Origin: a virus
Taxonomy: Duplodnaviria > Heunggongvirae > Uroviricota > Caudoviricetes
IMG/VR virus record: IMGVR_UViG_2534681604_000004
Reading direction: 5' to 3' (one strand)
DNA length: 36,312 bases
This document shows, one piece after another, positions 3,005-16,274 of the stretch; the stretch's first letter is position 1; every line of letters starts with the position of its first letter. A program made the translations under genes and the position numbers. The notes below the pieces were generated by a model. That model was not told the origin of the DNA. It worked only from the letters and a program-made list of their open reading frames with translations, and ran no database searches.

Positions 3005-3127
3005 TACAATCGCTGCGGGTGCTTGAGGCTATCTGCTTCAGGCATTACCCGACAAGCAGATAGAAGAAAGCCCCAGATAACATTACGCGTCCTGCAAGAC
3101 GCTTAACATTAATCTGAGGCCATATCT

Positions 3128-3334
3128 ATGCTTAGCATACGTAGATTAGCCTCTTACCGACCAAAAGGTCAAGGAGAAGCAGGCTATGAAGCAGCAAAAA
3201 GCGATGTTAATCGCTCTGATCGTCATCTGTTTAACCGTCATTGTGACGGCATTGGTAACGAGGAAAGACCTCTGCGAGGTACGAATCCGAACCGGCCAGA
3301 CGGAGGTCACTGTCTTCACAGCCTACGAATCTGA
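3128..3334 (+). CDS. mok: mok-like overlapping reading frame of a hok/sok-type locus
   Basis: Track ORF that starts upstream of and overlaps the hok frame, as mok does in hok/sok. Confidence 0.45.
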   Translation: MLSIRRLASYRPKGQGEAGYEAAKSDVNRSDRHLFNRHCDGIGNEERPLRGTNPNRPDGGHCLHSLRI

Positions 3335-5420: not shown

Positions 5421-7010
5421 TTACTTAATAAGCAGCGGTACGCCCTGGATACGACGGGCTACGCCAGTCGGGCAGCAGGCCCAGACTACTTCCCATTTAT
5501 CGAATTCCGCCTGCGTAACTTTCAGCACATACGGTTCTGTACCGTCAGCATCAGGATCACGAGGAGCCACCAGAGCGCCGGAGGCGACAAAGCGATCTAA
5601 AAGTTTGGTCATCCCTTTAGTCAGGCCAGCCGCAGTAATACCGTCCGGGCTATGCTTCATCTGTCGGGCTAACTGGACAAAGAAACGGCTGATTGCATTC
5701 ATCAGGGATGGGACGTGCTGGAAGTGCAGATAGTTATCCTGCGTGCAGCAAGTTAAAGCATCGTCGATGATCATCTGGCCAGAGGTACCAACAGATACTT
5801 TATTGAGACGGCCCTTGACCATTGCCTCTTCGTCCGGGGTATCTTCCGGATACAGCGGTTGAATTGACGCACGAGCAATGACGGCACGTTCTTCACCAGC
5901 CGGTGAGTAATGCCAACCGCCGACATCAGAGTTTTTCTTGACGCCACGAGCTTTCGCCGCATACGCCGCGCCAGACAGACCGAAGACCACACGGGATTGG
6001 GTCCATTTGTCTTTGCAGGAGAACGGGAAGTGATAGACAGCACAGCTTACATAATCGGTACCAAGTAAACCGGTATCTTCAACAGCAGAGAGCGCTTCCG
6101 TGTACGTCAATGTCGGTTTGACATCAAAGAAGCCATCAATCAGGCGATCTGCACAGATTTTACCTAATGCGGTGATAGCCGCATTGTCATAGCAGCCCAG
6201 GCCAAGAACAGCGGTGTACATGTACGGCGCATTGTTCAGCACTTTCACCGCACGCAGGTACGCAGCGGTTGAGATTTTCGACTGATCACCGTTGGTACCA
6301 CCAGTGAACGCCAACGATTTTTTGTTTGTTACTTTCGCTGTAGAAATCAGATCTTCATTAACAACCGCGCGCAGATATTTAGAACGGGCTTCCAGAGCCG
6401 TAGGCAGATAACACAAGCGGCCCATGTCATCTTTCGCTTCTTCCGCCAAAGACACAGTGTGTGTCTCCAGGGTCGTTACCACACCGAGCGAAGTCGTCTG
6501 GGTCAGTTTTAAGAGGAAGCGTTCATTACCCGCGCTGTCCGCTGTTGCCGTTTCGATGGTTAACTCACGGGTAGGTGAAATACACGGATCACCATCATCA
6601 ACGTAGATAGCAAAGGCTTCGCCGCTATCAAGTTCAATTTCAGAACCGTATGGCAACGCACTGTAAGCCGGTTCGCCTGATTCATCGAACATAATAATCG
6701 GGAACTTCGCATCATCCGGAACAGCACGAACAACATAACCAGCGGTTTGCTGAATTGCTTCGTACACATGACGAATTGGTTCGAACTGTGAGCCGGAAGA
6801 CGGCTTCAGCGGTTCGCCGAGAACATCTTCGTAATTGGACTCAGTAACCGCAAGAACAGTAAACGGCTTGCCACGCGCAAATACGCCAATACCAGCCCAC
6901 AAGCTGCTATTTAATGCAACACCGGTAGATAACGTCGCATCGGCATTGATCGGGCTAACCGCGACGCCGGATGCATTACCTAATGACTGTTGAATTGAAT
7001 ATTGAGACAT
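5421..7010 (-). CDS. tail sheath-like protein, 529 aa
   Basis: Track ORF; size and position (between head-like gene and smaller tail genes) fit recalled P1 gene 22. Confidence 0.6.
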   Translation of the reverse strand: MSQYSIQQSLGNASGVAVSPINADATLSTGVALNSSLWAGIGVFARGKPFTVLAVTESNYEDVLGEPLKPSSGSQFEPIRHVYEAIQQTAGYVVRAVPDDAKFPIIMFDESGEPAYSALPYGSEIELDSGEAFAIYVDDGDPCISPTRELTIETATADSAGNERFLLKLTQTTSLGVVTTLETHTVSLAEEAKDDMGRLCYLPTALEARSKYLRAVVNEDLISTAKVTNKKSLAFTGGTNGDQSKISTAAYLRAVKVLNNAPYMYTAVLGLGCYDNAAITALGKICADRLIDGFFDVKPTLTYTEALSAVEDTGLLGTDYVSCAVYHFPFSCKDKWTQSRVVFGLSGAAYAAKARGVKKNSDVGGWHYSPAGEERAVIARASIQPLYPEDTPDEEAMVKGRLNKVSVGTSGQMIIDDALTCCTQDNYLHFQHVPSLMNAISRFFVQLARQMKHSPDGITAAGLTKGMTKLLDRFVASGALVAPRDPDADGTEPYVLKVTQAEFDKWEVVWACCPTGVARRIQGVPLLIK

Positions 7011-7070
7011 AACTTTCCCTGTTATGCGCCCCGCACGGGGGCGCTATGTTAAACGGAGAACTTCCCCTGA

Positions 7071-8798
7071 TTACTCAGAGTCACCGGCATCAATCGTGTC
7101 GCCGCTTATGAAGTTAAGCCCGCCTTTTTTGGCCATTGTCAGCGTTACACGAGTGAAGTAATCAGCGCCGTTGCGTGGGTGCATATCGTTGATAGCCGAA
7201 CCCCACAGCGTGGTACGGTTGACCAGCGCCGGAGTGGTCGGATGCTGGAACGGGATGGCCGGGACAGCATCACCAGTCACGAAGCCTGCTTTACCCGGAT
7301 TTTCATCACGGACGTAGCACAGCACATCCATCGAGCTGAACTGAATGTTCTCTGTCGTTAAGTTCTTACAAATACCAGCAGGTACTTCGTACACTTTCAC
7401 GTTACCGAACAGGGTACCGATGTAGTGAACATACGGAGTCTGGATATAGTCTTCGGCTGGCTGGAAGAAATCCTTCGGCAACTGTTTGAAGAAAGATGCT
7501 GCATCAGCACCAGCAAACATCCCCATCGCACCAGAAGATTTAACGCGCTCAATAATGTCGCGATATACAGTCTGGAATTTGCCACGAATGATGGTTGCCC
7601 ATACATCAAAGGACTGGTTAACCGGCAGAGCGATGTCAAAGGTGTCGGTCGCAAGAGTACGCCAGATCATAATGCGAAGACGCAGCATATCCTGTTCATG
7701 AGACAGGTATTCCTTCAGGGTGCGGAACTGTAGGGAACCCAGGTCCAGACCAAACTCACGCTGTGCTTCATACGCCGCCTGTACCGTGTGCTCAGCCGCG
7801 ATAACGAACTGGCTTGGGAACAGGGTGTATTTCTTCATTTCGTGGTTGATCAGCGGGATCAGCTCAGGAGCGGCTTCAATATTGATTTCCGTCTCAATTG
7901 CGATCTCAGTGCCTTTATCCGGCGCTTTGGAGAACGACAGGGCAATCTGACCAATGTTGTAGTTCAGAGAGCAGGTAACAGTGATTTGCTCACCAGCAGC
8001 ATTAGTAAACGAGTGAAGTAGGCTGCCGGAACCGTTATCAACAACAGACTTAATACGGTTAACGTAGATGTTAGTGCGACCTTTTCGGATTGGTACATTC
8101 TGGCCTTCGAAGTCTTCCATCTTGAAGGTTGCGGTTTTGCTGGTGCCATCGGAGCTTGCCACCAGCACATAGCGGCGGCGTAACTGGCTGTACACACCGA
8201 CGGATTGCATGTCCAGAACATCACCAGCAGCATAAGAACCAAAAGAGGAACCTGCCACGTTAAAGACTTCATAGATGTCGGACTGGTCACGCGTAACCGG
8301 AATGAAGGTACACGCATCAGCGGTAGCTGCCCCCAACTGAACAGGCAGGATCATCGCGAGGAATAAAGGCAGACGCATAACACCGTCAGAAACGCTCATC
8401 ATCTCTGCTGCGACGGATTCCAGCATCGCTTTATTAGTGGCATCCATGCTATTGCGGGTGGACTCAATCAGGCAGTTTTCCAGCGTCTGGTGGCAGGAGG
8501 CCAGAATTTCCGGACGCGGCATAGATTTATGTGCTGCGGCGTAGTCAGCCAGTGCACTTGCCCACGCGGTAGCAATTTGAGCGGTGGCATTATCAGAGAT
8601 ACCCGCAAAAATTGGGTCTTTACGTGCAGCTTCAAGGATAGATGCGGCACGCGCGGCATCATCTTTGATGAATTGGTTATCAGTACCGAACTGTGCTGTA
8701 CTTGCCCAGCCAAGAACGGCTTTAGAGCGTTTTGCGATATCTGCAATACGATTCTGGTATTCGCGTAAGCTACTCAATTTACTCTTCCTTAAACACAA
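7071..8798 (-). CDS. major head protein-like, 575 aa
   Basis: Track ORF adjacent to parS as recalled for P1 gene 23; assignment by synteny and size only. Confidence 0.55.
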   Translation of the reverse strand: MCLRKSKLSSLREYQNRIADIAKRSKAVLGWASTAQFGTDNQFIKDDAARAASILEAARKDPIFAGISDNATAQIATAWASALADYAAAHKSMPRPEILASCHQTLENCLIESTRNSMDATNKAMLESVAAEMMSVSDGVMRLPLFLAMILPVQLGAATADACTFIPVTRDQSDIYEVFNVAGSSFGSYAAGDVLDMQSVGVYSQLRRRYVLVASSDGTSKTATFKMEDFEGQNVPIRKGRTNIYVNRIKSVVDNGSGSLLHSFTNAAGEQITVTCSLNYNIGQIALSFSKAPDKGTEIAIETEINIEAAPELIPLINHEMKKYTLFPSQFVIAAEHTVQAAYEAQREFGLDLGSLQFRTLKEYLSHEQDMLRLRIMIWRTLATDTFDIALPVNQSFDVWATIIRGKFQTVYRDIIERVKSSGAMGMFAGADAASFFKQLPKDFFQPAEDYIQTPYVHYIGTLFGNVKVYEVPAGICKNLTTENIQFSSMDVLCYVRDENPGKAGFVTGDAVPAIPFQHPTTPALVNRTTLWGSAINDMHPRNGADYFTRVTLTMAKKGGLNFISGDTIDAGDSE

Positions 8799-8925
8799 GG
8801 CACTTGTGTGAATCCCTTTTCGGAAGAGATTTTATTGAAAGTCACTTGTTGACTTTCTCGTGACAAGCAATTTTTTTATTTTTTTCGGGAGGAGGGGAGG
8901 AGGGTAAAATCCAAGGTGAAATCGT

Positions 8926-8998
8926 GGCGATTTCACCTTGAAATTTTAGAGCAATTTACTTTAAAAACAGTCTGTTAATAGTGAAATTTGAATGGCGA
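8926..8998 (-). other. parS: parS centromere-like partition site
   Basis: GTGAAATCGTGGCGATTTCAC box array, central AT-rich IHF-like region and distal TGAAAT/TGGCGA boxes, directly downstream of parB; matches recalled P1 parS. Confidence 0.85.
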
Positions 8999-9002
8999 AA
9001 GT

Positions 9003-10004
9003 TTAAGGCTTCGGCTTTTTATCGAGGCTCTTTCTAAGGATATGCCCAATCATCCTGTCGAGTTCTTCCTGTAACTCTTTTGAGAGTCGATTAAACTCAT
9101 AAGAAAATGCTCGGCCTTTCACGCGCTTCCTTGCAAAGCGATCCTTATCCTCAAATTTCCATAATTCAGTAACTACGGACTTATCTTTAGAACCTTTATC
9201 CGTGAGTAGTGAGGCTTCCTTTGTTATCAAGCGCAGGATTTTATTTTTAACTTCATCTTCGGCCATTTCTTCAATGGATAAGATGTCGTTTATTTCCGGG
9301 GATATGTTTTGAATAAGCTGATCAAACTCTAAATTCTTGTTCCCCATTTCGTCGCCAACAGCACAAAGCGTTTTGTAGTCCGAAAAGGTTAATTCCGACT
9401 GCACAGGGAAAAGGGCGACTAATTCTTCCGGAGCACTCGCTGCCTGGAGAGCACGCGTGACCTTCGCCTGAGACAGCCCTTCCTTGGCTGCAATATCCTT
9501 CTGACTCATCCCATCATTTTTCATTCGCATCAAACGCAGACCTATTTCTCGAATGCTGTGCTGCAATGCTGTCTGAACGTCTTTCGCTAAATTTTGCGCT
9601 TCCTGAACGCTGATCTCCTGGTCCGTGACTAAAACCCGCAACCCTACGTTCTCTAAGATGGCAGAAGCTCGACGCCGGGAACCATCCAAAATTTCAATTT
9701 TCCCTGTAACCCGTCTAACACCTATTGCAGGGTAAAATTGCTGATGCTTAATAGTGCTTCGGATACTTTTTAATGATTTTGGCGTAAGAGATGCCTGGTC
9801 ACGCCCGTTGTTATGCTGATCAACAAAGGTATCGCTTTCTACCTGGTTCGGAGGTATTACCTCTTCAATAAATGTGGCCTGGCGACCAGTTGATAACTTG
9901 AATACCTGCTCGACTCGATCGCCAGAGGCTGAAGAACTATCAAATCCGCTTAATATTGAAGGATTAAGGGTTCGCCCAATTGTTGGTCTGTTTTTCTTTG
10001 ACAT
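9003..10004 (-). CDS. parB: ParB partition protein, 333 aa
   Basis: Track ORF; sequence recognised as P1-type ParB; followed by parS. Confidence 0.93.
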   Translation of the reverse strand: MSKKNRPTIGRTLNPSILSGFDSSSASGDRVEQVFKLSTGRQATFIEEVIPPNQVESDTFVDQHNNGRDQASLTPKSLKSIRSTIKHQQFYPAIGVRRVTGKIEILDGSRRRASAILENVGLRVLVTDQEISVQEAQNLAKDVQTALQHSIREIGLRLMRMKNDGMSQKDIAAKEGLSQAKVTRALQAASAPEELVALFPVQSELTFSDYKTLCAVGDEMGNKNLEFDQLIQNISPEINDILSIEEMAEDEVKNKILRLITKEASLLTDKGSKDKSVVTELWKFEDKDRFARKRVKGRAFSYEFNRLSKELQEELDRMIGHILRKSLDKKPKP

Positions 10005-10020
10005 GGGGGTTTCTTACTCC

Positions 10021-11217
10021 TCAGTTAGATCTGATAAATTCAATACGGTCAAAAACTGCTTTAGCAAAATCTTCCGCGGCAATTCGCGCGTTCTTCAATG
10101 CATCAGCACTACCAACATACGTTGCCGGGTTAGCTGAAATAACAGTGTCAAAAGACTCGCCGCAACGTTCAAAACCGTCAAGGCGAGGGAGGACGACATC
10201 GAGCATATCCCCACCGAACACTTCTTTAGCCAGGCTATGGCAATACTTATGATCTGCCTTGTTACTCAACTTGGACATAAAACCAATGTTAGTCGCAAGC
10301 TGGCACTCGCAGCCTTCATCCGAAATGAGTTTCACCAACTCAGGAAGGCGGGCAACGTATTTAAGCGATGAGTGGAAATCGACAGTTGCTGGCGGCAGAG
10401 GTGTAAACAGTATATTGGCCGAGGCCAAAGCATTTTTCAGGAAGGCGTCAAGGTGAGGACCACTATCAACGAGGATAAAGTCATAATCGCTCTTCAGCTT
10501 ATCAATCACATTTTCTTTCAGGACAGCATGGATGTTCTGACCCGGTAGATGCTCATTGCACAGCTCTCTCCAATCGGATGCAATAAAGGCATCGTCAATC
10601 GACGCAGGCATAACGTCAACCCCAGGTACAACAGAAGGAACAATAAACTCCTCTAACAGCTCTTCACGGCTTACATTCTGCAACATAGCCTGTGCAGATG
10701 TTGCGTTTACGATACCAATAGAGTGTTTATGGCTTAAAAACATCGTTGCTGAAGATTGCGGATCAAGGTCAATAACCAGAATCCTTAAATCTTCCATCAG
10801 AAGATGAGGGTGGGCACGCATTGCATGCGCCAGAGAAACCGTCGATACAGTTTTTGACACACCGCCTTTAAGATTGGAGATGAAAATCACATACGCTTCG
10901 CTGTAGCGATCCCGGTATTTTGGCACTCCGCGATGTTCATATATGTCAATGATGTTCTGAATTGACATCGCATATTTCATTGAAGAGCCAGCAGGGCGTT
11001 TATCGAAAACATAACCCTTTTCTTCCATTTCACTCACGGCATAGTCAACGTTCGCTCGAGTCAGTAGAGGCAATTTTGCCAGTGCCGCTTTCGCATAGAC
11101 CTGGTAAAACTCGTTCGCGTGTAGCTCATCCTTTTGCAACTGTACTTGTTCAGTCAGAACATTGAGCATTCTGTTTGCTCTTTGAGCAACCTTGTGAAGC
11201 TGGCTGGAATCACTCAT
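10021..11217 (-). CDS. parA: ParA partition ATPase, 398 aa
   Basis: Track ORF; Walker A KGGVSKT; N-terminal extension typical of type Ia ParA; recognised as P1-type ParA. Confidence 0.93.
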   Translation of the reverse strand: MSDSSQLHKVAQRANRMLNVLTEQVQLQKDELHANEFYQVYAKAALAKLPLLTRANVDYAVSEMEEKGYVFDKRPAGSSMKYAMSIQNIIDIYEHRGVPKYRDRYSEAYVIFISNLKGGVSKTVSTVSLAHAMRAHPHLLMEDLRILVIDLDPQSSATMFLSHKHSIGIVNATSAQAMLQNVSREELLEEFIVPSVVPGVDVMPASIDDAFIASDWRELCNEHLPGQNIHAVLKENVIDKLKSDYDFILVDSGPHLDAFLKNALASANILFTPLPPATVDFHSSLKYVARLPELVKLISDEGCECQLATNIGFMSKLSNKADHKYCHSLAKEVFGGDMLDVVLPRLDGFERCGESFDTVISANPATYVGSADALKNARIAAEDFAKAVFDRIEFIRSN

Positions 11218-11385
11218 CGAAAGCCATCCTTTATGCTGTATTTTTGAATTTAATTAAAAATGCTGCATAAAATAATAATGTATGCGTAGATGCTTGTACA
11301 TAGCATTCTCTGCATGTTTGGTTCATTTTGCACGATTGAGAGTTACAAGGAGGGCACAAAAAAGCCCAGTTCAGGGGCATCAGTG

Positions 11386-12195
11386 TTATTTGCTAAGAGC
11401 AGCGAATAATCGTTCGAAATCGATAGTATCTATAGCACGCGTAAGCGCCGGAAGTTCAGCCTCAAAGTACCCGTGTCGATCGTAAAAGAAGGGACCGAAG
11501 AGCGAGGCATGTTGGATTCTACTTCGCCCCAGCCCGGACACACAGTTAAGCCCATTACCGGCTAAAAGGCTAAAAAACTTCTCTGGATTATCGTGGTAAA
11601 GCTGGGAATCAATGGTGGCGGTTAACTCTTCCATAGGGAAGCACACCCGCCTTGTCTCCCAGGGATATTTAGTCCGAAGCATAAACATTGCTTTCAGCAA
11701 TTCACATTGAGCACGGATCGCGTCCGGTTCATAGCCAGATATGGAGACATAAGCCACGTCCCTCATTCCTGCGTCATCTTTGAAAGTCACGATAGAAGTA
11801 ACATCCAGCTCTTTTTCGAAAGAGCGAGCAGCATCTACTGGACGCTGAAGTAAATCATTCGACTTAATGCGCTCTAGAATCCCTCCCCACATATCATTTA
11901 GATATTCGATATGAGCCAAAACCTTATCAAGACACTCTCGTGTAAACCATTCAGTATGCCCGCCACCGGCGCTTTTCTCCCACGGCGCATTCCAGGGGAA
12001 AAAGGTTGCGTGTAAAGCCCGCTCAAGATTAACTATTGCCAAACGCGTACCACGATAGACCCGTGAAAGCGCAAAATCGGGACTCACTTGTAGCCCTTTA
12101 AACCGTGCCAATGGACCACATGAAATGCCGATTTTAAAAGTATCTCCATTCTCCGGCACCAGAACGTAGAGGTAGTGTTGTTTCTCTTCTTGCAT
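11386..12195 (-). CDS. T5orf172 / GIY-YIG-like domain protein, 269 aa
   Basis: N-terminal YLYVLVPENGDTFKIGIS ... GGHTEWF resembles the KIG-x-T and TEWF signatures of the T5orf172 family; C-terminal 150 aa unassigned. Confidence 0.6.
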   Translation of the reverse strand: MQEEKQHYLYVLVPENGDTFKIGISCGPLARFKGLQVSPDFALSRVYRGTRLAIVNLERALHATFFPWNAPWEKSAGGGHTEWFTRECLDKVLAHIEYLNDMWGGILERIKSNDLLQRPVDAARSFEKELDVTSIVTFKDDAGMRDVAYVSISGYEPDAIRAQCELLKAMFMLRTKYPWETRRVCFPMEELTATIDSQLYHDNPEKFFSLLAGNGLNCVSGLGRSRIQHASLFGPFFYDRHGYFEAELPALTRAIDTIDFERLFAALSK

Positions 12196-12230
12196 ATCAA
12201 TACCACTGCTTGATGAGAACCGCGCAAATG

Positions 12231-12489
12231 TTGACTATGCGCGAAAGTTAATGTGAATAGTTGACTATGCGCGATGTGACTACAGTCAAAAGTTGACTGT
12301 AGTCGATTTAACTCCACCAAAGATCGACTATGTAAGATATTGTCGGGAGAAACGTTGACTATACGCGATGAAATGACCCTAAAAGCCATCTCAATAGCGA
12401 CTTGCAGAATATTGACGCCAGCAAAAATCCACCAGCGTCAACGAATGTCGCCTATAGTCAACTTCTCGCTATCGCATATAGTCAATATT
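12231..12489. repeat. iteron array downstream of repA (incA-like), about 6 copies of GTTGACTAT(G/A)CGCGA in both orientations
   Basis: Copies at about 12231, 12261, 12354 (direct) and 12450, 12471 (inverted), plus a 12-bp inverted repeat GACTACAGTCAA..TTGACTGTAGTC at 12276-12301. Confidence 0.75.
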
Positions 12490-13429
12490 ATGGATTGCGC
12501 TTATGGATCTGGAAGCCGATTTTCCTGCCGTTTTTTATCTCTGAAAATTTAAGATATTCAATAGCTTCCAAATCTTTCATGGCTTTTCTGATAACGCTAT
12601 TTTGCACGCTAACGGATGATTTGAGATTAAGCCTTGCTCTAAGGCGCTCAATGCTGACAGGTGCCGGGTTGGCGGGTAGAGCCTCAAAGAATGTATACAG
12701 TACCTTGGCCGTCTCTTTGCGCCCGAGCTTATCCAGCATCTTCAGCTTCAGGATTCGCTTATAGTCAACATAGTAAAGTTCAGATAGCTGTTTCTGCGGC
12801 TGGATCTCGATAACATCAAGCTCGGTATTCAGGCTGCTATATGCCAACAAGTTGACGTTAATGTTATTGAGATGACCTTTTGCCGCCGGGAAGCGGAATT
12901 TGACAACTGTCTGCTGAATGCGTGTCAGAGAGTCATCAATACTTTTACGGAACGCCTTTGAAAGGCGCTTACGTGGATAGCCGCATCGATCGGCAAACTC
13001 GGAGAATGGCAGGGTGATTATGCCGTCATCATCAGGTGCGTAGTCAAACAACGCGGAGGTTATGCCCACCCACACCTTAAAATCAGTATCCATATCCAGG
13101 CGTGGACCATGAATTTCAATTCCCTCATAGCCTTCCTGCTCAACAATTTTGAGGCTTGATAGTTCTTCGGTTGCGTTCGTTGTGTTTGTAGTAACTGACG
13201 ATCCGCGACGTAGTGCCACATTGGTAGATTTTAAGGTTGGCACAAACACACCTAAGCGCAACAAAGCGATGGGTTGTATAGTGCTATTGTTATTGGGTTT
13301 CAGGCTGTGGATTTCTCCTGTATTTCCTGCAACTTCTTCAACGCTAAGGAAGCCTTTATTTTCTTCCGGCATCGTGGTTTCTCCATATGTGGCGCGGCCT
13401 GGCGTCATCTGGATTGCAGTTATCAACAA
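12488..13429 (-). CDS. repA: RepA plasmid replication initiator (P1 / RepFIB-type), 313 aa from first Met
   Basis: Track ORF flanked by iteron arrays on both sides; QPIALLRLGVFVP motif recalled from P1-type RepA; true start may be an internal Met at 13408 or 13372. Confidence 0.8.
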   Translation of the reverse strand: MLITAIQMTPGRATYGETTMPEENKGFLSVEEVAGNTGEIHSLKPNNNSTIQPIALLRLGVFVPTLKSTNVALRRGSSVTTNTTNATEELSSLKIVEQEGYEGIEIHGPRLDMDTDFKVWVGITSALFDYAPDDDGIITLPFSEFADRCGYPRKRLSKAFRKSIDDSLTRIQQTVVKFRFPAAKGHLNNINVNLLAYSSLNTELDVIEIQPQKQLSELYYVDYKRILKLKMLDKLGRKETAKVLYTFFEALPANPAPVSIERLRARLNLKSSVSVQNSVIRKAMKDLEAIEYLKFSEIKNGRKIGFQIHKRNP

Positions 13430-13450
13430 CTGTGAATAGTCAGGCTCTAA

Positions 13451-13555
13451 AATCGCGTACAGTCAATGTTTCTGTCGCGTATAGTCAACAATAAATCGCG
13501 TGCAGTCAACAATAAATCGTGCACAGTCAACATAAAATCGCGTATAGTCAATGTT
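13451..13555. repeat. five direct iterons upstream of repA (incC-like / oriR core), ATCGCGTATAGTCAA(C/T)
   Basis: Five copies at about 21-bp spacing starting 13451, 13475, 13494, 13515, 13537. Confidence 0.8.
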
Positions 13556-13592
13556 CATCCCATTTCAGGCCAGAAATGGCGCGGCTTACAGC

Positions 13593-13663
13593 GATCCGGG
13601 ATCTTCTTTGGATCTTCCTAGGTTCTCTTTAGGATCTGTTTATTGGATCTATGCTGTGGATAA
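13593..13663. promoter_or_regulatory. origin-associated GATC cluster (5 GATC in 57 bp) plus DnaA box TGTGGATAA
   Basis: GATC at 13593, 13600, 13611, 13633, 13646; DnaA box at 13655-13663; same order as the recalled P1 oriR (DnaA box, GATC region, iterons, repA). Confidence 0.65.
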
Positions 13664-13706
13664 GTTGAATAAACCGGCCAACAAAGCCGGTTGGAAGGAA
13701 GCCATA

Positions 13707-14099
13707 TTATTCTACGCTTTCGATGAGAAGACCATGTTCATAACATTTAAGCTCATCGCCTTCATACAGGAATTGGTATCCAACACCACCACCTTCCGGC
13801 ACATTAGGGAATAAATCATCACTTACCGAAGAACAAATCACACCAATGCAGCGATCAACACCTTCTCGTTCTTCAGTGCTGAAAAAATCCTCTTCAATAA
13901 GCACTTGATTACATTGCTCATCAGCATAAGTTGGAAATACATGTTCGATACAATCTGGATGTTTTAAACCAAGCTGATCGGCAAGCTCGAAAGCATGACG
14001 GTATTGTTCAGATCCTGGCTTGCCAACAGTGATTTGCTCAATTTTGTAGATTGAAGTCGCTTTGTTGATAGTTTGCTTTACTGTTACTTTATCAGACAT
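13707..14099 (-). CDS. hypothetical protein, 130 aa
   Basis: Track ORF; first gene beyond the origin, last of a five-gene minus-strand operon. Confidence 0.45.
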   Translation of the reverse strand: MSDKVTVKQTINKATSIYKIEQITVGKPGSEQYRHAFELADQLGLKHPDCIEHVFPTYADEQCNQVLIEEDFFSTEEREGVDRCIGVICSSVSDDLFPNVPEGGGVGYQFLYEGDELKCYEHGLLIESVE

Positions 14100-14110
14100 A
14101 AAAATCCCTT

Positions 14111-14443
14111 TTAGTTACTGCTGATAGCGCGGTTGTAATCATTAACGTTGCGATTCTTCCTGTTAATCCCCATCAGCATCGTTTCTGTATCAAGGATATA
14201 GGCTGGCAGATCATCAAAATATTCACTGCTAAACTCTGGCATCCTGCACATAAATGCACTTTTGGGGGCAGGGTGGTTAACCTTTGTCGGCGTCGGCGTT
14301 AAATTCGCTGATCGACTCCCGGAGCAACCGCTGAGTGTCAGCAGGAATACGCTGGCGAACATTACCCGCCGCAACCAGTTGTTTCTGAACTTCAGCTTTT
14401 CGTTCCATTTGTCTGTCTGCATACTTCGCTTGTTCTGATTCAT
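14111..14443 (-). CDS. lipoprotein, o-spanin-like (Rz1-like), start partly embedded in the upstream ORF
   Basis: Lipobox LLTLSGC followed by Pro/Thr-rich TPTPTKVNHPAPK; overlaps 14277-14699 by 167 nt in a different frame. Confidence 0.5.
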   Translation of the reverse strand: MNQNKRSMQTDKWNEKLKFRNNWLRRVMFASVFLLTLSGCSGSRSANLTPTPTKVNHPAPKSAFMCRMPEFSSEYFDDLPAYILDTETMLMGINRKNRNVNDYNRAISSN

Positions 14444-14699
14444 TTTTCACTTCCTGGCTGTGAAAATGTTGATCCGCTCTATTCATCGTCTCAATGGTTT
14501 GGTTAAGATCAATGATTGACTTATCGCGCTCCTTAACAGCCTGATCAAGGCTGCCAATTTTCTCCAAGGCTTGCTTTAACTGATAACGTTCCCATGCAAA
14601 CCCAGCACCAACAAGTGCGCAAATCAGGACAAGAACACCAGTAACAGCAAGTTTCTCCTTCAAAGACAAAGCTGTTTTTAACGTTGAAAAAAACGACAT
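14277..14699 (-). CDS. membrane-anchored coiled-coil protein, i-spanin-like (Rz-like), 140 aa
   Basis: N-terminal TM helix LAVTGVLVLICALVGAGFAW, then charged helical periplasmic region; overlaps the lipoprotein ORF. Confidence 0.5.
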   Translation of the reverse strand: MSFFSTLKTALSLKEKLAVTGVLVLICALVGAGFAWERYQLKQALEKIGSLDQAVKERDKSIIDLNQTIETMNRADQHFHSQEVKNESEQAKYADRQMERKAEVQKQLVAAGNVRQRIPADTQRLLRESISEFNADADKG

Positions 14700-14738
14700 T
14701 TCTTCCTCCTGAAGAAAAATTATCTGTGAAGTCCTTTG

Positions 14739-15527
14739 TTAAAGTGTCGCCTTGTTTAATTCATCAAGAACAGAATCAGGAACCAAAGCTGCGACTGCGC
14801 TGGCGGTGCTGGCCTTATTTGCTGATGCTTCCGCCAGCGCGGTTCCGATAGCATGGTTATAAGCAGTTATGGCTACGCTGGCGCTTTCCTTCGCTCGTTC
14901 ATACTGCTGTTGCAATGCTGCTACCGGTACTGTTGTCTGGTCGAAAAAAGCACCAAATTGTTCAGTTGCTTCCTTCAGTGCTTCAACTTGTTGTTCTGTC
15001 AGTGATGGTGGGGGAGTGACTGCGCCACCACCGGAATCAGAGCCTGACGAGCTTCCTGAGCCTGTGTTAAGGGTCTGGTTAATGTCCCCCATAGCAGCGA
15101 CTAAACTCGACGTATTAAGCGCATTTACAGCGTCCTCAAGCGATTTCGTTGTAGTCGCGTCGCCAATGGCAATAGAGATCGGCAGTTCTGAAACTTCTCG
15201 CTCATTAGCACGACAGTAAACATTCCAACCAATATCGAGTTGAAGGAGCATTGACAGATCAGCATAACCAGCCAACAGGTCCGCGTGCTGAGTTGCCAGC
15301 CCTCCAATATTCGTTAAACCGGTTGCGGTTGTTCTGATCGTTGAAACATAGCTGGTAATAGTGTTGGGATAGACAATTGTATCCAGAATTAATCCGGTCA
15401 ATTCTTCTGCAAGCAGTTTTGCTGTGTTAGCACTGTTTCGTGCCGATGTTATGGCACCAGGTGTTTTCATCCCACCGGCGGCGGCCAATTTTTTATATGC
15501 GGATAACTGGTAGTCTTTTTCCAGCAT
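14739..15527 (-). CDS. hypothetical protein with Ser/Gly-rich linker, about 262 aa from internal start
   Basis: Track ORF trimmed to the Met preceded by AGGAG at 5-nt spacing (start codon 15527-15525). Confidence 0.5.
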   Translation of the reverse strand: MLEKDYQLSAYKKLAAAGGMKTPGAITSARNSANTAKLLAEELTGLILDTIVYPNTITSYVSTIRTTATGLTNIGGLATQHADLLAGYADLSMLLQLDIGWNVYCRANEREVSELPISIAIGDATTTKSLEDAVNALNTSSLVAAMGDINQTLNTGSGSSSGSDSGGGAVTPPPSLTEQQVEALKEATEQFGAFFDQTTVPVAALQQQYERAKESASVAITAYNHAIGTALAEASANKASTASAVAALVPDSVLDELNKATL

Positions 15528-15535
15528 GATATCTC

Positions 15536-15820
15536 CTAACTTACCTGAACCAGGCCGTCTCCGGCTGCAACGGTAGAGCCGCATGAAACAGGATCACCAA
15601 CGCATACGATCCCTTTCCCGTTGACGGTAAACCATGCCCTGGTTGATATAGCTTGCCCGACGTGCGTGCTGTTCCCATCGGTATGCTGTGCATATTGCTT
15701 ACCATCAACTAACACTTCGACTCCGTTGACTTTAAGTAGTGGTTCGCTCTCTACGGGAGGCCTGGATGGGAATCCTCCGTGCCCCGAACAAATGCTGTCT
15801 TTTGTTGCAATACTCGCCAC
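15536..15820 (-). CDS. PAAR-like repeat protein (putative spike-tip protein), 94 aa
   Basis: Gly-rich repeats SGHGGFP / VNGVEV / VNGKGIVCVGDPVSCG resemble the PAAR fold signature. Confidence 0.55.
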   Translation of the reverse strand: MASIATKDSICSGHGGFPSRPPVESEPLLKVNGVEVLVDGKQYAQHTDGNSTHVGQAISTRAWFTVNGKGIVCVGDPVSCGSTVAAGDGLVQVS

Positions 15821-15901
15821 ATCACCACCAATTGTTTGCTCTGATTTTTGTTATTTTAACTTAGGTTGTTTGTGGTCTACATGGCGTTTACTTATTATAA
15901 A

Positions 15902-15918
15902 ATTGCTCTAATAAATAT
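15902..15918 (+). promoter_or_regulatory. C1-repressor operator-like site in a divergent promoter region (ATTGCTCTAATAAATAT)
   Basis: 16/17 match to recalled C1 operator consensus. Confidence 0.6.
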
Positions 15919-15989
15919 TGTTTTTTGTGTCGTGTTTTCGGTACCATTCAGCCATCGCCCTTCAATGGGCATTTGTTTGGAGTCGTCAG

Positions 15990-16274
15990 ATGCAGATGGA
16001 GCTAATAAGCCGCAAAGAGTTCGATAGCCGTGTAACCAGCGGTGAACTCGACAACTTGCAGGCTATTAAGGTGAAAGAAGGCTTTTGCCTCATTGGGAAT
16101 CAGAGCGGAACAAATCGCGTTTTTATGCTTCGCCGTACGGATTTGAAGCCATTTGTCTGGAAGAACGAAATTGGTCCCAGCTCATACGCTCAAACGAGGG
16201 GGTGCCACAACCTGGCATTTTTCTACAAAGACGAGCTTTCTGTGGTTGATATTCAAGGGTTACAACATGTTTAA
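15990..16274 (+). CDS. small protein upstream of hrdC, about 94 aa
   Basis: Internal ATG with GGAG RBS in track ORF 15918-16274; position fits recalled P1 uhr. Confidence 0.4.

Follow-up and report, generated by a model that had tools for sequence, protein, structure and literature searches.

The window, meaning the entire 36,312-nucleotide stretch of viral DNA that was analysed, contains a replication region whose central gene, repA', lies on the minus strand at 12488–13372 and encodes a protein of 294 amino acids. From the open reading frame, Pfam and fold matches, the product is predicted to be an iteron-binding initiator with tandem winged-helix domains. The Pfam family Rep3_C is matched above its cut-off (27.3 against 21.1) and Rep3_N lies 0.4 bit below it (22.0 against 22.4); a sequence search of the PDB with RepA' returned nothing significant, and a search of NCBIfam gave no match. 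An AlphaFold model of the protein (mean pLDDT 72.5) was compared with known structures by Foldseek, and its best PDB fold matches are solely winged-helix iteron initiators, with RctB (domains 2–3), RepE, pi, the WH1 domain of pPS10 RepA and TrfA at the top. These matches have probabilities of 0.98–1.0, a low global TM score of 0.3–0.4 and a TM score of 0.55–0.61 for the single WH1 domain. By both the Pfam and the fold matches, RepA' belongs to the winged-helix iteron initiators and has their tandem winged-helix arrangement.

The gene is flanked on both sides by copies of a short repeat with the consensus AAATCGCGTATAGTCAAC. Scanning the 36-kb window with the 15-nt core TCGCGTATAGTCAAC and allowing up to three mismatches yielded 13 matches, compared with 0.74 expected from shuffled sequences, and 12 of the 13 lie within 12230–13552. 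Upstream of repA', where an earlier note made from the DNA letters had placed five direct iterons, five copies in one orientation form a set of incC-like origin iterons on the plus strand (13449–13556; cores at 13453–13467, 13475–13489, 13496–13510, 13517–13531 and 13538–13552) with a spacing of 22/21/21/21 bp. Each of them contains TTGACT on the repA-coding strand. Downstream of the gene, an incA-like control array occupies both strands at 12226–12490 and comprises six clear cores, one degenerate core and one weak site. Four of the clear cores are on the minus strand (12230–12244, 12260–12274, 12292–12306 and 12354–12368), spaced 30–32 bp, with the degenerate core in phase on the same strand at 12323–12337, while the other two are on the plus strand (12448–12462 and 12472–12486), the final one adjoining the repA stop codon; the weak iteron-like site is located at 12424–12446. 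The "about six" bidirectional iterons counted earlier on this side correspond to the four minus-strand and two plus-strand copies, to which the degenerate one is added.

A further iteron-like sequence, TCGCTTATAGTCAAC, is found inside repA' on the plus strand at 12755–12769, where it differs from the core by one mismatch and covers codons 202–206 (VDYKR). In a scan with a position weight matrix, neither this site nor the degenerate one scored above the best shuffled sequences, and both are therefore reported as candidates only. Codons 202–206 are identical at the nucleotide level in a relative whose RepA is 85% identical in amino acids and 75% in nucleotides, with synonymous changes flanking the site on both sides; the chance of such identity is about 0.02, and of the 172 comparable windows of five codons, 12 show full identity. 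This conservation is suggestive but not proof, and the candidate may act as an extra RepA' site, for example as an intragenic partner in handcuffing or as a roadblock to transcription. An internal iteron-like site also occurs in a more distant relative with 53% RepA identity (L010, 3422–3442), at a position unlike that in the window.

On the origin side of the iterons, GGATCT-type repeats at 13593–13649 contain five GATC (Dam) sites (13593, 13600, 13611, 13633 and 13646), in agreement with the number previously proposed. Five such sites in 57 bp make this the sole spot in the 36-kb window with at least four GATC per 60 bp, and the segment is presumed to be where the origin opens its strands and senses methylation. 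It is followed by a single perfect DnaA box, TTATCCACA, on the minus strand at 13655–13663, also foreseen in the earlier note. Two DnaA-box-like sites with one mismatch each, TTATCAACA on the plus strand and CTATTCACA on the minus strand, are situated at 13420–13439, in the gap that separates the repA start from the iterons. A sigma-70 scan of the coding strand gave no convincing repA promoter; a weak candidate for the repA' promoter on the repA-coding strand, TTGACT-17-GACTAT, runs from 13509 to 13481 and agrees with the consensus at 8 of 12 positions. Rfam detected no RNA family in the replicon region; elsewhere in the window it reports a sok antitoxin RNA, part of the hok/sok addiction module, at 3017–3191 (+), and ARAGORN predicts tRNA-Ser(tga) and tRNA-Met(cat) at 21311–21397 and 22733–22808 (+). 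Phased origin repeats, a DnaA box and an easily opened segment, as in an iteron-controlled theta replicon, are all found here. The basic replicon extends from about 12226 to 13663, which fits the span given in the earlier note, and the coordinates, counts and repeat sequence recorded there proved correct throughout.

The organization of this region closely follows that of phages P1 and P7, for which a P1-like architecture had been suspected: number, phasing and orientation of the iterons, the GATC sites and the DnaA box are congruent with the annotated P1/P7 replicons. Gene order and the position beside parAB are alike, and P1 and P7 likewise have five origin iterons at 21–22 bp. In P1 the incA array abuts the repA stop codon, with the proximal copies oriented like those of the origin and the distal ones inverted at intervals of about 31 bp, and the same is true of the window. 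The P1/P7 oriR contains five annotated Dam sites and a DnaA box with which the window aligns, one GATC being shifted, and the conserved GC-rich spacer of P1/P7, GGCCAGA..TGGCGCGGC, is present as well. The P1/P7 RepA is a full-length homologue of RepA' with 40.9–41% identity. The repeats themselves, however, are different. The core TCGCGTATAGTCAAC is unrelated to the P1 iteron TGTGCTGGAGGGA and to the annotated P1/P7 form GATGTGTGCTGGAGGGAAA, with nothing obvious in common beyond a short CA(G/A)CAC-like stretch, so that the mismatch with the P1 iteron noted in the first reading is borne out by comparison. Smaller differences are a control array of nine copies in P1 against six to eight in the window, two tandem terminal DnaA boxes in P1/P7 against a single one here (a difference of 7 bp), an iteron-like candidate in repA' that has no equivalent within P1 repA, and a GIY-YIG open reading frame that P1 lacks.

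The RepA family extends beyond P1. RepFIB-type initiators (IncFIB-like RepB/RepA of Klebsiella, Escherichia and Enterobacter plasmids) belong to the same family with 44–49% identity, and the RepA of the phage-plasmid SSU5 is 45% identical to RepA'. The RepFIB-type proteins are thus slightly closer to RepA' than P1 RepA is, and some database records label the RepA' protein "RepFIB replication protein A". The RepFIB-type proteins are about 336 amino acids long, compared with 294 for RepA'. A much closer sister replicon, designated L007, is found in an E. coli contig (DABKFZ010000018, 40713–47597); its RepA is 85% identical, its origin has the same layout, its iteron is TTGACTATGTGCGA, and it has a perfect DnaA box at the place equivalent to 13420–13439 of the window. 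It is surrounded by phage tail and transglycosylase genes without an adjacent parA, and a similar replicon occurs in comparable 90–94 kb plasmids of E. coli and E. marmotae; this appears to be one more variant of the replicon, carried by a different phage-plasmid backbone. In the relatives with 85% and 53% RepA identity the layout is retained while the repeats co-vary with RepA (TTGACTATGTGCGA and CTAGCATCAAC, respectively), as would be expected if the repeats are cognate binding sites.

Comparison with phage P1 (NC_005856) reveals that the replicon was exchanged as a block. Positions 7000–11319 of the window, containing part of gene 23, parS, parB, parA and the par promoter, are 99.1% identical to P1, and the BLAST alignment with P1 resumes at 13569–16257 with 95.3% identity (upfA, mlp, ppfA, upfB and so on), so that unrelated sequence replaces the P1 incA-repA-incC segment between P1-matching stretches. 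A right edge at 13569, as this alignment would place it, was dropped. Positions 13557–13668 are 83% identical to L007 and 67% identical to P1, and since L007 stands outside a P1 context, the part with the GATC sites and the DnaA box is assigned to the p0111 lineage introduced below. The homology to L007 covers only 12425–13663 of the window and its end puts the true right edge just past the DnaA box, at about 13664–13668. The swapped module therefore measures about 2.35 kb (11320 to about 13666, minus strand), stands in place of the 1.5–1.6 kb incA-repA-incC-oriR of P1, and contains the GIY-YIG/T5orf172 open reading frame, the control iterons, repA' and the origin.

The GIY-YIG-like (T5orf172) open reading frame encodes 269 amino acids on the minus strand at 11386–12195, where it separates the control iterons from the parA promoter. 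Its Pfam T5orf172 match is above the cut-off (E=7.6e-6), plasmid records annotate it as "GIY-YIG nuclease family protein", and it is the "gp57" of phage JL22 (PMC9603915). No counterpart was found in P1 or in the 85% relative L007. In PLSDB it is present in 401 records, compared with about 396 that have the replicon at at least 95% identity, so in P1-like elements the gene and the p0111 replicon are practically always linked. Two options are a passenger gene and a nuclease that favours exchange of the replicon; in the latter case the gene, at the edge of the module, may act like a homing nuclease driving the repeated replacements of IncY by p0111 replicons seen across P1-like lineages. Neither such a homing role nor a function of the intragenic iteron was found described in the literature searched, and taken jointly the two readings are regarded as rather unlikely.

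Replicon typing, which the earlier note had recommended as a check together with alignment, points to p0111. The p0111 label of PlasmidFinder is usually assigned to rep genes with about 95% or more nucleotide identity to the reference. The repA gene of the window is identical to the rep coding sequence of pO111_2 (NC_013370.1, E. coli O111:H- strain 11128) at 882 of 885 nucleotides (99.66%), and it hence types as p0111 and not as IncY. The p0111 reference record is AP010962.1 (PMC11165635); as plasmid and strain names agree, NC_013370 is taken as the RefSeq version of that record. At the protein level, the RepA of SJ46 and of JL22 is 100% identical to that of the window and the RepA of RCS47 is 99.7% identical. 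Across the 4.2-kb stretch that runs from parA to upfA, the window shares 98.7% identity with pO111_2 and 98.5% with SJ46. The linked GIY-YIG open reading frame is common to pO111_2, SJ46, RCS47 and JL22, and there is no substantive difference between them and the window, the frame being annotated in two pieces in pO111_2. P1-like phage-plasmids have been described to carry either of two alternative replicons, IncY or p0111, and in JL22 repA' (p0111) and gp57, a gene described as unknown, stand in for the IncY repA (PMC9603915; PMC11165635); the identity between the RepA proteins of P1 and SJ46 was reported as 42% (PMC5241659).

The region thus very probably serves a P1-like phage-plasmid as its low-copy replicon for plasmid maintenance, which is of the catalogued p0111 type (SJ46/RCS47/JL22/pO111_2) and not of the IncY type of P1. 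It is real and well-formed, but also ordinary and very common, with database entries at 99–100% identity. In PLSDB, a query with the 1.5-kb replicon matched 484 records, for the most part Escherichia plasmids that are non-mobilizable and about 90–120 kb in size. Of the 5426 complete E. coli genomes, 415 (about 8%) contain the replicon, none of them on two separate records. A scan of genome contigs with RepA found one identical locus only. As the p0111 variant was catalogued before, the replicon described here is no discovery; the idea of a distinct replicon within the P1-like family was right, given the 41% RepA identity, the unrelated iterons and the p0111 typing, but it is not new. Experiments on the iterons, origin firing or incompatibility of p0111-type replicons were not found in the literature searched, where the iteron-level anatomy of the type seems not to have been spelled out: the word "iteron" is absent from PMC9603915, and SJ46 and "iteron" appear together only in one unrelated review.

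While the replicon was exchanged, the partition system remained that of P1. The genes parB (9003–10004) and parA (10021–11217; Pfam domains HTH_54 and AAA_31) as well as the parS site (8916–8998), all on the minus strand, are of the P1 type. ParA and ParB differ from their P1 counterparts by one residue each, and parS has two mismatches to P1, neither of which falls within the ParB A and B boxes, so that all annotated boxes are identical and the incB specificity is that of P1. For the par genes of the window, identity is 99% with P1 but only about 65% with P7. A published comparison equated ParA and ParB of SJ46 with those of RCS47, which in turn were equated with those of P7 (PMC5241659); in contrast, in our alignment the parA region of SJ46 is 98.5% identical to the window. 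Incompatibility in P1 is determined by incA and incC for replication and by incB, which is parS, for partition. Since the specificity of RepA' and its iterons bears no relation to that of their P1 counterparts, the replication determinants corresponding to incA and incC, and with them replication-based incompatibility, are expected to be distinct from IncY, and with ParA, ParB and the parS boxes all P1-type, it is replication specificity alone that would have changed.

The consequences can be gauged from the co-residence of the two replicons, which was estimated by inclusion-exclusion on megablast counts in the 5426 complete E. coli genomes. The p0111 replicon query matched 415 records in 415 genomes, the P1 IncY replicon query 362 records in 361 genomes, and a chimeric query of both 777 records in 774 genomes. 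No record carries both replicons, and only two genomes contain the two together, on separate records, compared with about 27.6 expected (415 × 361 / 5426) under independence and ignoring population structure. On the same independence model, again ignoring population structure, the deficit has a Poisson probability of about 4e-10. The two kinds of P1-like elements are clearly not freely co-resident, which is what continued sharing of partition and immunity would lead one to expect.

A working mechanism can be proposed for the replicon, every step of which we infer from P1 by homology. RepA' monomers would bind the five helically phased origin iterons. Acting jointly with host DnaA at the box or boxes nearby, they would open the GATC-rich segment beside the iterons, whose Dam methylation state could couple firing to the cell cycle. 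The repA' promoter would lie within the origin iterons, and because of this embedding RepA' is proposed to repress its own synthesis. The downstream iteron array would titrate RepA' and handcuff with the origin, which would keep the copy number near one.

Among the alternatives to a p0111-type replicon, one is that the region is an ordinary IncY replicon as in P1 and P7, whose iterons merely look different and whose initiator has the same specificity as that of P1. The P1-like gene order and origin layout speak for it, as does the part with the GATC sites and the DnaA box, which aligns with P1/P7 at about 67–78%. However, RepA of IncY plasmids that have been proven incompatible with P1 is about 72–73% identical to that of P1 and their iterons are near-identical (PMC10999674), so that with a RepA at 41% and unrelated iterons the replicon falls outside IncY. 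Neither a close P1-like RepA nor 19-bp iterons of the P1 type (GATGTGTGCTGGAGGGAAA) exist here, the latter being neither annotated nor detectable in the module, and matching of the PlasmidFinder type leads to p0111. An IncY identity is refuted at the sequence level by RepA, iterons and typing alike, and we give it next to no credence. It is scarcely more probable that the module is decaying or plays a secondary part, with the element maintained by another replicon. Erosion might be seen in the degenerate iteron at 12323–12337 and in the single DnaA box, but a single DnaA box suffices in the oriR of P1. Moreover, the repA' frame is intact and tightly conserved, with more than 400 genomes at at least 95% identity, the module sits exactly at the P1 repA locus beside par, and the P1 replicon that would be needed as a fallback is deleted; nothing else in the window was found to favour this reading.

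Starting from the p0111-type replicon as the preferred reading, the question that follows is whether the swap renders the whole element freely compatible with IncY prophages, such that both could stably share a cell. In favour are the distinct replication determinants, the published suggestion that the two types "can theoretically be compatible" (PMC11165635), and two complete E. coli genomes that do contain both replicons on separate records. Yet, with ParA, ParB and the parS boxes of the P1 type, incB incompatibility should persist, and with the remaining backbone 95–99% identical to P1, shared immunity is likely as well. The low number of shared genomes, two where about 27.6 were expected with population structure ignored, points in the same direction. 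Free compatibility of the whole element is considered quite improbable, though less so than an IncY identity or decay of the replicon.

For the p0111-type replicon the value of these observations is practical only, in that they type the element as a p0111-replicon P1-like phage-plasmid. In E. coli and Salmonella, elements of this kind spread cargo genes, those for ESBL among them, and knowledge of the iteron anatomy could aid the design of incompatibility-based curing tools. Taken together, the locus combines a new replication specificity with the old partition specificity in one modular element, and replicon typing alone should therefore not be read as compatibility with P1.
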